Shown piece by piece: positions 19,889-23,357 of a stretch of DNA of 30,170 nucleotides. Position 1 is the stretch's first letter. Every line of letters starts with the position of its first letter. The translations under genes and the position numbers were made by a program. The notes beneath the pieces are model-generated. The model did not search any database. It worked only from the letters and a program-made list of their open reading frames with translations, and was not told where the DNA came from. The stretch comes from Burkholderiales bacterium (lineage in GTDB: Bacteria > Pseudomonadota > Gammaproteobacteria > Burkholderiales > Usitatibacteraceae), in assembly GCA_043788115.1 (NCBI GenBank), contig JAYVUH010000165.1, forward strand, positions 1 to 30,170, read 5' to 3'.

Positions 19889-20752
19889 ATGACGGTCACC
19901 CGACTAAACGAAGCACTCACAGACTCGTCCGGCGTCTATTTCGACGCTGGCTCGCTGGTCGCCGCGCAGCAATCGGCGTTTCAAAAGATCGAAATTTTCG
20001 ACTGTCCCGACTTGGGGCGGCTGATGCGCATCGACGGCAGCAACATGACCTCGGAGCGCGATGAGTACTTTTATCACGAGGCGCTCATCCACCCCGCAGC
20101 GATCGCGCATCAGCATCCGCAACGCGTGCTGATTATCGGTGGCGGCGATGGCGGCGCGGCTGAAGAACTACTCAAGCACCCGATTGAGACCTGCCGCCTG
20201 TGTGAACTCGACCAGGCAGTGGTGGATATGTCACGGGCGCATCTGGGCAACATCCATGGCGGCGCGTTTGACGATGCACGGCTCACGCTCGACATTGGCG
20301 ACGGCATGGCGTTTGTGCGTACCTCGTTTGGTGGCGCCGCGAGCGAGTCATTCGATCTGATTTACCTTGATCTGACCGACCCGATCGGCGCGGCCGAGCC
20401 GCTCTACGCGCCGAGCTTCTTTCAAGACTGCAAACGGATACTCAACAACGGCGGTGCGTTGGTGATGCACATCGGCTCGCCGTTCTCCCATCCGGCAAGA
20501 GTCACGCAATCGCTCAAGGATCTACGCACCAAGTTCGCGATCGTCACGCCGTACTTTGTGCATATTCCGATCTACGGTGCGGTGTGGGGTTTTGCCGTCG
20601 CGTCTGACCTGCTCGATATTCGTCAAGTCAACGTCGGTGCCATCGACGCCACGTTGGCGACGCGACGTATCGAACAGCGACGGCTCTACAACGGTGACTT
20701 TCACCACGCCATGTTGGCGCTGCCGGAATACGTCAAAACATTGGTCGTCTGA
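19889..20752 (+). CDS. speE: Polyamine aminopropyltransferase (spermidine synthase family)
   Basis: SAFQKIEIF, LMRIDG, YHEALIHP, VLIIGGGDGG, ELDQAVV, DLIYLDLTDP. Confidence 0.92.
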   Translation: MTVTRLNEALTDSSGVYFDAGSLVAAQQSAFQKIEIFDCPDLGRLMRIDGSNMTSERDEYFYHEALIHPAAIAHQHPQRVLIIGGGDGGAAEELLKHPIETCRLCELDQAVVDMSRAHLGNIHGGAFDDARLTLDIGDGMAFVRTSFGGAASESFDLIYLDLTDPIGAAEPLYAPSFFQDCKRILNNGGALVMHIGSPFSHPARVTQSLKDLRTKFAIVTPYFVHIPIYGAVWGFAVASDLLDIRQVNVGAIDATLATRRIEQRRLYNGDFHHAMLALPEYVKTLVV

Positions 20753-20769
20753 CGCGGTATATTGTCGGC

Positions 20770-21132
20770 ATGAAAAAGTCTGATGTAGACAAGTTCGGCA
20801 AGCGCAGATCGAGCACAGCGGTGACGCTGGTGGTGATCGGTGCCGCGGCGATGACCACGTTGGGCGGGTGTGCCAAAGAAGATGTTCGTCGCGACGTCTA
20901 CGCTAACAAGGAAGACTGCCTTGCCGATTGGGGTAACAACCCTACCGACTGCGAGCCTGCCTACGATCATCCCGCTTCTCGCGGTGCGGGAACGGCTTAC
21001 TATGGGCGTCCGTATATCCATAACAGCGGGGCAGGTAGCGCATCGCGATCAAGCAAGTCGATCGGGTCGAGCTCAAGTGTTTCCCGGGGCGGATTTGGCT
21101 CAAGCGGCCACTCGTCTTCTAGCGGCGGATGA
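20770..21132 (+). CDS. DUF1190-like (YgiB/YjfM-like) lipoprotein with Gly/Ser-rich tail
   Basis: Basic N-region, hydrophobic stretch and lipobox LGGC; RRDVYANKEDC..DW...C; tail SRGGFGSSGHSSSSGG; located upstream of a Gsp-like ligase as in ygiBC. Confidence 0.75.
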   Translation: MKKSDVDKFGKRRSSTAVTLVVIGAAAMTTLGGCAKEDVRRDVYANKEDCLADWGNNPTDCEPAYDHPASRGAGTAYYGRPYIHNSGAGSASRSSKSIGSSSSVSRGGFGSSGHSSSSGG

Positions 21133-21641
21133 TCGTGGTCGAGCCGCTGGCGGCGCTTGAGGCGGCAGATCAGCAACAATTGGGAGTGCTGTTGCTGGAT
21201 TCAATCCAGCAGGGGGCATCGGTGGGCTGGACCAATCCCGCGTCTCTTGACAACATACAAGCGTACTGGAAGACCATCGCACAGGATCTTTTACGGGGCA
21301 GCCGCTCAGTGTTGGTCGTTCGTGAGGGCGGCGCCATCGTTGCTTCGCTCCAACTCGAATATGCTAGCAAGCCTAACAGCGTGCATCGCGCCGAGGTACA
21401 AAAAGTGTTGGTGCATTCCTCGCAGCGCCGCCGCGGGCTGGGTCGACTGTTGATGCAGCGGGCGGAGGAAATTGCGCGCAGCAGGGGCCGCAGCTTGCTG
21501 GTACTCGATACCGAATCGGCCAGCGCGGGGCAGTGGCTTTACGAATCGATGGGCTATGTGGCCGCAGGCGAAATTCCCAAATTCGCCATTGGCACCAATG
21601 GTGGCTGGACACCGACAACCTACATGTACAAGTTGCTCTGA
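21129..21641 (+). CDS. GNAT family N-acetyltransferase (Ttr-like)
   Basis: RAEVQKVLVHSSQRRRGLGRLLM (acetyl-CoA motif A), LLVLDT, LYESMGY; ATGA overlap with the lipoprotein stop. Confidence 0.88.
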   Translation: MIVVEPLAALEAADQQQLGVLLLDSIQQGASVGWTNPASLDNIQAYWKTIAQDLLRGSRSVLVVREGGAIVASLQLEYASKPNSVHRAEVQKVLVHSSQRRRGLGRLLMQRAEEIARSRGRSLLVLDTESASAGQWLYESMGYVAAGEIPKFAIGTNGGWTPTTYMYKLL

Positions 21642-21645
21642 GCAG

Positions 21646-21841
21646 ATGCAACGTGAACTCTTGATCCCCCGACCCGACTGGCCTCGAAAAATGGAGGGCA
21701 GGACGCTTTTAGTGTCGGCCGACCTGCCGGTCTTAACTTGGCTGCGCCAAGTTAGCCTTCACTGAAAGCAAAGCCCGCGACCACTTCCCATGCAACGTGA
21801 ACTCTTGATTCCCCGACCCGACTGGCCTCGAAAAATGGAGG
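21646..21841 (+). repeat. 52-bp direct repeat of the ligase gene 5' end (21646-21697 and 21790-21841) flanking a 92-nt structured insert
   Basis: 51/52 identical; the single difference (C21666/T21810) is synonymous (Ile); period 144 nt, in frame. Confidence 0.95.
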
Positions 21842-22929
21842 AGGTGGGCTTTGCTTTTCATTCCATTGATGGCATCTACTGGGATGAGCGCGCCTGCTAT
21901 CAACTGACGACGGGAGAGGTGGATATGCTCGAGTCAGTCACCAACGAGCTGCACGAGATGTGTATCGACGCCGCGGCGCGGGTGATTGAGCGCGAGATGT
22001 TTGAACAATTCGCCATCCCGCCGGAATTTGTGCCGCTGGTGGTGGCGTCTTGGAATGACGACGCGCCGACGCTGTTTGGTCGGTTTGATCTTTCGTGGGA
22101 TGGCAAAAGTCCGCCAAAGATGCTCGAGTACAACGCTGATACCCCTACCTCGCTGATCGAAGCTAGCGTCGCGCAATGGTACTGGCTGAAAGACGTCAAA
22201 CCGGATGCCGACCAATTCAACAGCCTTCATGAAAAATTGATTGCGCGCTGGCGCGAGGTGTCTTCTGAAATTGGCGCAACCACCATTCACTTTGCATGTG
22301 ACGGCACCAGCGAAGAAGACGTTGGCAATCTTGACTATATGTGCGATGTCGCAACCCAGGCCGGCCTGTCACCGCGCTTCATCGATATCGCCCATATCGG
22401 CTGGGATGCCGTTGGCAAACGATTCGTTGACGAACAAAACAACGATATCGCCGCGATGTTCAAGCTCTATCCGTGGGAGTGGATGGTGCGCGAGGCGTTC
22501 GGCCGGAATGTTCTGAGCGCAAACACGTGTTTCATCGAGCCGGCATGGAAGATGCTGCTCTCCAACAAGGCGATCCTGCCGGTCCTCTGGGAAATGTTTC
22601 CCGACCATCCCAATTTGCTGCCCGCCTATTTCACGCCGCAGAAATTCGCCAGCGACTTCGTTAAGAAACCGCTGCTGTCACGCGAGGGTGCCAATATCAA
22701 CATCCATACCGGCAGCGGTGAAGTGGCAACCAGTGGCGAGTACGGAGAGGAAGGGTTTATCTACCAAGCCTACCATCCATTGCCGAATTTTTCGGCCAAT
22801 GGTGAGGCAAACTACATGGTCGTCGGTAGCTGGATCATTGGTGATGTCGCAGCGGGCATCGGCATTCGTGAAGATGAGTCACCGATCACCAAAAATACCA
22901 GCCGTTTCCTGCCACATTACTTTGTTTGA
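21790..22929 (+). CDS. Glutathionylspermidine synthase-like ATP-grasp ligase (YgiC/YjfC type, no amidase domain)
   Basis: GRFDL, MLEYNADTPTSLIE, KLYPWEWM, EPAWKMLLSNK, KKPLLSREGANI, GSW, GIRED; 379 aa. Confidence 0.92.
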   Translation: MQRELLIPRPDWPRKMEEVGFAFHSIDGIYWDERACYQLTTGEVDMLESVTNELHEMCIDAAARVIEREMFEQFAIPPEFVPLVVASWNDDAPTLFGRFDLSWDGKSPPKMLEYNADTPTSLIEASVAQWYWLKDVKPDADQFNSLHEKLIARWREVSSEIGATTIHFACDGTSEEDVGNLDYMCDVATQAGLSPRFIDIAHIGWDAVGKRFVDEQNNDIAAMFKLYPWEWMVREAFGRNVLSANTCFIEPAWKMLLSNKAILPVLWEMFPDHPNLLPAYFTPQKFASDFVKKPLLSREGANINIHTGSGEVATSGEYGEEGFIYQAYHPLPNFSANGEANYMVVGSWIIGDVAAGIGIREDESPITKNTSRFLPHYFV

Positions 22930-22940
22930 GAGAGGTTGTT

Positions 22941-23357
22941 ATGGCGCGCTATCAATTGATGGAATCCTTCGCCGGATTCGATGACTTTCTGGTTTACCTC
23001 GGCATCGCCGCGGCGCTGCTGGCGATATTCGTTGCGATCTATGTACGCATCACGCCGTACCGCGAAATCGCCCTGATCCGGGATGGCAATATGGCCGCCG
23101 CGTTCAGCTTGTCGGGTACCATCATCGGCATGGTGCTGCCGTTGGCGTCCGCCGTGAGTAGCAGCGTCAATCTGATCGATCTTGGCGTGTGGTGCACGAT
23201 CGCGTTGCTGGTCCAGCTGCTTGTGTTTGTGGTTGCGCGCATGGCGCTACCGACCATCGCGCACGACATCCCGGCGGGCAAACAGGCGGCGGGAATTTTT
23301 TTGGGCGCGATCTCGGTGGCGGCGGGGTTGTTGAATGCGGCGGCGATGACCTACTAG
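22941..23357 (+). CDS. DUF350 (YjfL-like) inner membrane protein
   Basis: Four hydrophobic segments; ITPYREIALIRDGNMAAA, SSVNLIDL, LLNAAAM; GAGAGG RBS before ATG 22941. Confidence 0.88.
   Translation: MARYQLMESFAGFDDFLVYLGIAAALLAIFVAIYVRITPYREIALIRDGNMAAAFSLSGTIIGMVLPLASAVSSSVNLIDLGVWCTIALLVQLLVFVVARMALPTIAHDIPAGKQAAGIFLGAISVAAGLLNAAAMTY

Follow-up and report, generated by a model that had tools for sequence, protein, structure and literature searches.

A hairpin repeat of the Burkholderiales beside a duplicated ligase gene start: evidence for a small cassette that probably spreads between species

Small palindromic repeats are, to our knowledge, common in bacteria, with the means of movement unknown for most of them. 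Several described systems offer points of comparison. Islands and phages that integrate by att-type recombination in the ends of tRNA genes bring along their own copy of the gene end that they interrupt. IS200/IS605 elements and their derivatives, and the REP/REPIN sequences with RAYT, are hairpin-based and strand-specific, insert 3' of a fixed tetranucleotide and make no target duplication. Group II introns recognise their targets by EBS/IBS pairing. MIRUs, as summarised in PMC12548453, are small and apparently mobile and insert at operon gene junctions, with a short ORF through which translation is coupled to the gene downstream; that summary places their insertion at start codons with a -4 overlap, and describes for them no gene duplication of 20-90 nt and no target-complementary arm. 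Ssn-related motifs (SRMs; consensus HGTCWYN(0-2)YYVSBRH...RNCYNB) and the Neisseria NTS and dRS3 sequences (PMC11893778) are, like the repeat described below, abundant short hairpin repeats of Betaproteobacteria; they are acted on as single-stranded DNA.

We analysed a stretch of 30,170 nucleotides, here called the window, from a Usitatibacteraceae genome of the Burkholderiales (G000). Positions 19889-23357 hold genes for a spermidine synthase, a DUF1190-like protein (20770-21132), a GNAT protein, a GSP-synthase-like ligase and a DUF350 protein, and on its predicted gene content this operon is a ygiBC/yjfMC-type cluster joined to polyamine genes. A repeat search of the window recovered a 52-nt direct repeat at the ligase gene (21646-21697 and 21790-21841; 51/52 identical, start-to-start spacing 144), the sole mismatch being ATC versus ATT, both Ile. 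This confirms as real the duplicated ligase start around an insert, with its synonymous difference, that a sequence-only reading had described. The 92 nt between the copies encode nothing except part of a uORF. The same reading had taken the first ATG, 4 nt behind the GNAT stop (TGA 21639-21641, ATG 21646), to be the ancestral start position, and the insert-free relative G007, which has the GNAT stop, 6 nt and then ATG, bears this out. The features of the locus are as follows.

21129-21641, + strand: GNAT acetyltransferase gene (Pfam PF00583, ORF list), with its stop TGA (21639-21641) 4 nt 5' of copy 1
21646-21697, + strand: copy 1, codons 1-17 of the former ligase gene start of the host, in its native position behind GNAT (51/52 against copy 2; junction as in the insert-free G007)
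21646-21765, + strand: putative relay uORF of 39 codons plus TGA within CACTGAAA, which shares the frame of the ligase ORF and stops 24 nt short of the ligase ATG
21698-21706, + strand: degenerate remainder of copy 1 (formerly ...GGGCTTTGC), intact in G360/G361/G359/U74
21707-21767, + strand: E repeat core (TTTTAG...GTTAGCCTTCACTGAAA), a three-way hairpin (48-copy alignment and pair counts; DNA fold z = -3.0)
21765-21776, + strand: arm X' (AAAGCAAAGCCC), the target bases that precede the TTTT junction in inverted form, and perfect complement of 21846-21857
21777-21789, + strand: spacer (GCGACCACTTCCC), common to all species with the insert and persisting in G387/G378 as a scar
21790-21858, + strand: copy 2, the functional ligase gene start through X (21846-21854, GGGCTTTGC) and TTTT (21855-21858)
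21790-22929, + strand: glutathionylspermidine-synthase-like ATP-grasp ligase gene (YgiC/YjfC type), 379 codons (PF03738, E-value 1e-150)

The insert is one copy of an undescribed, order-wide family of hairpin repeats, which we call E. E is a structured repeat of 41-70 nt with a 5' box, TTTTAG-YTNCGGC, and a 3' box, GTTAGCCTKCACTGAAA; window positions 21707-21767 fit both, with 0 mismatches in the 3' box. At no more than 1 mismatch, the E 17-mer box is present in 70 of the 301 genomes sampled from the order (GTDB Burkholderiales). A genome has up to 14 of them, some in tandem, and the reversed pattern, used as control, gave about 0. The 70 take in one unpublished genome (G050), which is used in no other claim. 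In a phylum-wide sample, multiple hits occurred only in genomes of this order; outside it, hits were single, carried one mismatch and stayed at control level. Rfam gave no match at an E-value of 10 or below across 21300-22200, and a literature search for repeats with gene-start duplications and for the exact motif strings found no description of E in searchable full text.

The fold of E rests on an alignment of 48 copies, in which 89.3% of cells were paired against 80.8% after shuffling (0/500), and double-sided changes numbered 91 versus 26 (slid controls, 24-60%); the alignment also excludes that the copies are unrelated. An outer stem TTTTAG/CTGAAA encloses GGC/GCC, an optional hairpin 1, and hairpin 2 on a TAAC/GTTA base, and the pairings backed by the 48 copies are TTTTAG/CTGAAA, GGC/GCC, GACC/GGTC and the 9-bp hairpin. 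The outer stem covaries, from TTTTAG/CTGAAA to TTTTGG/CCGAAA, and because it holds a T.G pair in 47/48 copies the fold is strand-specific. The window copy conforms to this description and folds alike as single-stranded DNA (z = -3.0). Dense folding of the insert had been noted from the letters alone; the 9-bp hairpin (21734-21742/21746-21754) is indeed perfect, and the palindrome GTCGGCCGAC and the GGCAGG/CCTGCC arms exist, but the GGCAGG/CCTGCC stem is absent from the fold that the 48 copies back.

By BLAST against its own genome the full insert is single-copy, and the 3' box alone recurs, on contigs C307 and C70. On C307 (about 1894-1910, - strand) this second box lies upstream of nuoD and is followed by TTCATCGT, the complement of the nuoD start (ACGATGAA-CTTT). 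In place of its 5' side stand REP-like GCGTAGCCCGGAAGG... repeats; since the contig ends there, these repeats probably break the assembly. Elsewhere in the order, many copies without flanking repeats (L078, L086, L087, L070, L042 and others) share a CTTCGTTTTC / CTGCGTTTTG tail behind E, and the shared sequence points to a preferred target or to a subfamily whose 3' end is longer. Inspected by eye, the orientation of E on two complete chromosomes (G081, G049) followed no obvious strand pattern.

Duplicated gene ends recur across the family. Among the 109 E copies with enough flank, 47 had a flanking direct repeat across E above the 99th percentile of cross-instance controls, and more than half had no detectable flanking repeat. 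The duplication in the window is thus not the one-off accident around a REP-type repeat that the sequence-only reading had named as the alternative. The flanking repeats measure 19-92 nt, and their upstream copy ends at a TTTT abutting E or at most 16 nt from TTTT. In most pairs the outer edge of the repeat is a gene boundary, namely the start codon if the gene is co-directional with E and the stop codon if it is opposed; by count, E is co-oriented with the affected gene in 11 cases and opposite to it in 16. Targets include nuoD, ruvC, NAD-epimerases, the end of ftsW beside murG, and the anticodon loops of tRNA-Phe, tRNA-Leu and tRNA-Ser, and an intact gene is always retained at these loci.

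A second family-wide property is an arm complementary to the target. An inverted-repeat search of the window showed that the 12-nt arm at 21765-21776 pairs perfectly with 21846-21857, immediately beyond the 52-nt copy 2; X' in the strict sense is 21768-21776, the complement of X, GGGCTTTGC (21846-21854). In other copies X' likewise consists of the first bases behind CTGAAA and is complementary to the target bases that precede the TTTT of the intact copy: at least 9 of 12 positions are complementary in 15/29 repeat-bearing copies, against 1.8% in controls. Matches of X' to the leftover copy are fewer (8/29), as the final 7-14 nt of that copy are often scrambled.

Three kinds of locus illustrate the range of these arrangements. 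At L041 (G108:C1, about 1283190-1283790) four tandem 135-nt units lie between nuoC and nuoD, each made of E, X', a spacer and a copy of the nuoD start ending in AATTTT. At tRNA loci (L052, L048, L027 and L118, tRNA-Phe; L106 and L121, other tRNAs; L037, tRNA-Ser) E sits at the TTTT of the anticodon loop, between GGATTTT and CAGTCC on the E strand, within partial tRNA copies that adjoin an intact tRNA gene; the tRNA-Phe loci (e.g. L048, L052) have mirror geometry, with the intact gene on the opposite side of E compared with the protein-gene cases. At L028, L038 and L053, in genomes of two families (G027, G226, G052), E and a duplication are found at the 3' end of one gene (…KIDALFDL*, opposite strand).

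Set against the described systems, E matches each in part. Like a MIRU, the ligase insert has a uORF that is kept in 12/12 genomes, and ATGA-type overlaps occur at some loci (L045/L046, G004); E is, however, unrelated in sequence and taxon and inserts at TTTT inside a gene end. We therefore reject E as a MIRU: a relay ORF is present, but sequence, host and insertion site differ. As in att-type integration, direct repeats flank the insert, the gene stays intact and the copies differ like two alleles. Among the ideas of the sequence-only reading this one fits best, given the long gene-end duplications at 47 of the 109 copies. No tyrosine or serine recombinase lies in or next to the insert, whose neighbours are operon genes. 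The cargo of E, unlike that of att-type elements, is about 90-200 nt of non-coding DNA without integrase, and the same core occurs with dozens of gene ends and with repeats of 19-92 nt.

Like IS200/IS605 elements, E sits directly 3' of TTTT and has hairpins, and its simple form, TTTT followed by the E hairpin and a further TTTT, resembles their left- and right-end hairpins (L052, L027, L037). In E, however, the right-hand 'hairpin' is built from target sequence, and the long duplications and missing TnpA linkage argue against this type. REP/REPIN mobilised by RAYT was rejected, E having no GTAG tag and no inverted doublets; nine Y1 transposase (PF01797) genes in four E-rich genomes had neither E boxes within about 1.5 kb nor E-like ends. 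A MITE is excluded by inverted ends of 6 nt only and by flanking repeats that are absent or 19-92 nt and variable in length, and a non-exhaustive search found no parent IS. As in the EBS/IBS pairing of group II introns, X' matches by complementarity the bases directly 5' of the insertion site, so that every copy would have a target of its own, but E, at about 60 nt, has no ribozyme domains or reverse transcriptase and occurs in either orientation relative to transcription. The E consensus does not fit the published SRM consensus (PMC11893778). By analogy, E would fit MIRUs in its relay ORF, att-type integration in target restoration, IS200/IS605 in its junction rule and EBS/IBS in its arm.

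We compared the ligase locus across related species. The arrangement of partial gene start, structured insert and real gene start also occurs in G005 (one contig, 100% complete), G012, G009, G004, G361, G360, G374, G369, G359 and G375/U74, each with species-specific substitutions and in-frame indels. A scrambled patch homologous to 21698-21706 is present in G005, G012, G374, G009 and G004. Insertion had been placed after codon 17, where the two copies part in the window. The relatives move this junction to the TTTT at 21855-21858, after codon 23: since G360, G361, G359 and G375/U74 retain copy 1 through GFSF-TTTT, the original duplication was ~69 nt. Compensatory X'/X variants are found in G005/G009, and in G012 the X':X pairing is lost with the layout retained. 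At the ligase loci of G387 and G378 (L156, L157), sisters of insert-bearing species, copy 1 and E are deleted, leaving scars that retain the cassette spacer (CCCGCAACCACTACCC, or CGACCC) and a cassette-type copy 2 directly behind the GNAT stop. No local template for the 13-nt spacer was found within +/-2.5 kb on either strand.

The differences between copy 1 and copy 2 follow a codon pattern. Over 27 pairs with the frame anchored by the gene boundary, differences at codon positions 1/2/3 numbered 24/10/59 (chi-square p = 1e-9). There were 55 synonymous against 29 non-synonymous codon changes, a count that includes at least 1 mis-framed pair. C-terminal leftovers, which lie beyond a stop codon and E and are untranslatable, gave 5:0 (L128), 4:0 (L129), 3:0 (L099) and 9:0 (L137). 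A decaying leftover would be expected to change mostly non-synonymously, so the simplest reading of the third-position bias is that the two copies were functional gene ends until recently and come from different lineages. Selection on the uORF peptide was rejected as a general cause of synonymous-only differences, as the pattern is also present in the untranslatable leftovers; gene conversion was likewise rejected, as it would homogenise all codon positions equally.

Furthermore, copy 2 and the gene body behind it are discordant. Over the first 72 nt of the ligase gene, G374 and G005 are 93% identical, with gene bodies at 74% (p = 5e-5); the corresponding values are 93% and 75% for G000-G005 and 93% and 80% for G009-G004. 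Averaged over all pairs the 5' end exceeds the body by +7.7 points, compared with +1.9 and +2.5 in two control classes, and control pairs with an insert-free partner show no excess of 5'-end similarity. G374 matches the G005 group at 21/21 positions over nucleotides 54-75, with a fall in similarity right behind TTTT. In G012, copy 1 is host-type (MKREQL, like insert-free relatives) and copy 2 is of the G000/G005 type (MQRERL). On the gene-body tree the insert is patchy: it is present in most of one 7-species subclade (G387 and G378 with scars, G007 without insert), in G374 and G012, which are surrounded by insert-free species, and, in a second clade, in four species scattered over it. All carriers share a homologous spacer, X' and scrambled copy 1 patch. 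From these alignments we conclude that the ligase locus would have had one origin, followed by vertical descent, loss and between-species transfer of the unit. Part of the distribution is, by the scars in G387 and G378, clearly vertical with loss. In the two cases examined (G374 and G009/G004), donor-type similarity drops at or shortly after TTTT, and the left edge falls within copy 1; on that side the transferred unit does not simply begin at TTTT, because the scrambled copy 1 patch travels with E. Extra constraint on copy 2 from X':X pairing and translation start, rather than transfer, could account for part of its higher similarity.

We consider it probable that the insert is a small non-coding E sitting 3' of TTTT inside the ligase gene, within a cassette of E, arm, spacer and gene start that spreads horizontally. 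The unit would have arrived as, or become, a four-part cassette: E; the arm X', complementary to the target ahead of TTTT; the spacer; and a replacement for the first 23 codons that ends in the same TTTT. Since the cassette supplies a replacement gene start, the ligase gene remains intact, with copy 2 as the start from which it is read. Copy 1, the original start of the host, would have been left upstream, directly behind GNAT, where it opens the 39-codon uORF that ends at the TGA in CACTGAAA.

The same homologies could stem from a single ancient insertion in the genus ancestor with a long target duplication, followed by vertical descent and many losses and with no horizontal movement of a cassette. 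Selection on the relay uORF, gene conversion or both would then have kept copy 1 close to copy 2. The homology of spacer, arm and scrambled patch in both clades, the G387/G378 scars as vertical inheritance and loss, and a uORF conserved in 12/12 genomes all accord with this history. We nevertheless judge it unlikely: it requires about 8-10 independent losses, leaves unexplained a copy 2 that is 93% identical between clades with bodies at 74-80% (an excess not seen in insert-free relatives), and meets third-position-only differences in untranslatable C-terminal leftovers as well, a synonymous-only pattern that gene conversion does not produce.

The uORF and the pairing arm bear on expression. 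Judged by the sequence of the junction, the native ligase gene appears coupled to the GNAT stop; no clear Shine-Dalgarno sequence was found at the native or the new ligase junction, and a promoter and terminator scan gave no signal at or near the insert. The uORF runs from the copy 1 start codon into E in all 12 insert-bearing genomes, stopping 24-34 nt ahead of the real ATG or, in G004, overlapping it, and E holds stop codons in different frames (TTT-TAG, GT-TAG-CC, CAC-TGA-AA). By analogy with MIRUs, the uORF probably relays ribosomes from GNAT to the ligase gene. Elsewhere in the family, the leftover still forms the native stop/start junction to the gene that follows, e.g. at L059, where ATG...TAG abuts the murG ATG. 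In the RNA centroid the X':X helix spans 14 bp and competes with the outer stem of E for CUGAAA, so that a regulatory side effect of this helix is possible on the model.

We regard it as improbable, and more so than the ancient insertion, that the insert is primarily a cis-regulatory RNA. CUGAAA would pair with UUUUAG in one state, which leaves E folded, and in the other would join X' in pairing with positions +56 to +67 of the coding sequence; uORF translation would toggle between these two states and so control ligase synthesis, e.g. in response to polyamines. The 12-14 bp X':X helix that dominates the RNA centroid, the compensatory changes between species, the uORF stop just ahead of X' and the polyamine operon context are what such a device would predict. 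However, E adjoins unrelated genes (nuoD, ruvC, ftsW/murG, epimerases, tRNAs) in both orientations, forms tandem arrays (L041) and has no Rfam match; moreover, the helix leaves the start codon uncovered, and G012 keeps the same layout with no pairing.

Reversible removal and restoration of the insert through the repeats, toggling the operon ON and OFF, had also been suggested. The 52-nt direct repeats spaced 144 nt could recombine, and insert-free relatives exist. Nothing is switched off, however, as both states leave an intact ligase gene. The losses in G387 and G378 are imprecise deletions in which spacer and copy 2 are retained, and the collapsed allele that such recombination predicts was not seen in relatives: comparison of orthologous GNAT-ligase junctions did yield the ancestral junction, in G007, but G007 carries a different allele, without the cassette-type codons expected from a pop-out. 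The switch is not supported, and we give it very little credence. An assembly artefact (a strain chimera or repeat echo in a fragmented metagenome-assembled genome of 570 contigs, 89% complete and with 4.7% contamination) is refuted for the architecture, which, as the sequence-only reading held, is no echo, because the same layout recurs in independent assemblies from about 11 further species with their own substitutions and in-frame indels, a complete single-contig genome among them, although the single C/T difference between the copies could be strain noise.

Returning to a cassette that moves between species, several steps of its movement can be proposed. Insertion would occur on one strand, 3' of TTTT. 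A single-stranded DNA intermediate is consistent with the strand-specific fold and with E being found in both orientations relative to transcription (11 and 16). X' may be a fold-back copy of the target, made when the hairpin primes synthesis, or else a guide that selects the target; the gene-end copy, in turn, may derive from a template switch at the X' step or have been carried over from the previous host. The geometry would suit an origin through fold-back priming and template switching. Our searches found no transposase or other enzyme linked to E and no autonomous element between paired E copies, which enclose ordinary housekeeping genes; the pair on G283:C177 encloses a lytic transglycosylase-type gene and a tRNA synthetase gene, and on G107:C22 the search extended to a list of the ORFs. 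We saw no excised form and no empty-site pair from one population. Tentatively, and with more doubt than for the cassette itself, we suggest that E cassettes may be a new kind of non-autonomous homing element of roughly 100-200 nt, with a hairpin core, a programmable target-pairing arm that chooses the site and a built-in replacement gene end. Such a cassette could enter essential genes (nuoD, ruvC, ftsW, tRNAs) without damage and pass between the orthologues of different species.

The footprint of E is unusually informative, with a fixed TTTT junction, an arm matched to or copied from the target, and a gene-end duplication exactly long enough to rebuild the gene. In Burkholderiales genomes, E accounts for some contig breaks and, for annotation, for a class of 'duplicated gene starts', short leader ORFs and pseudo-tRNA fragments. 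If the cassette reading is true, a tiny non-coding element enters essential genes without harm and homes to the same gene in other species, and the target-pairing step that this implies might be reprogrammable.
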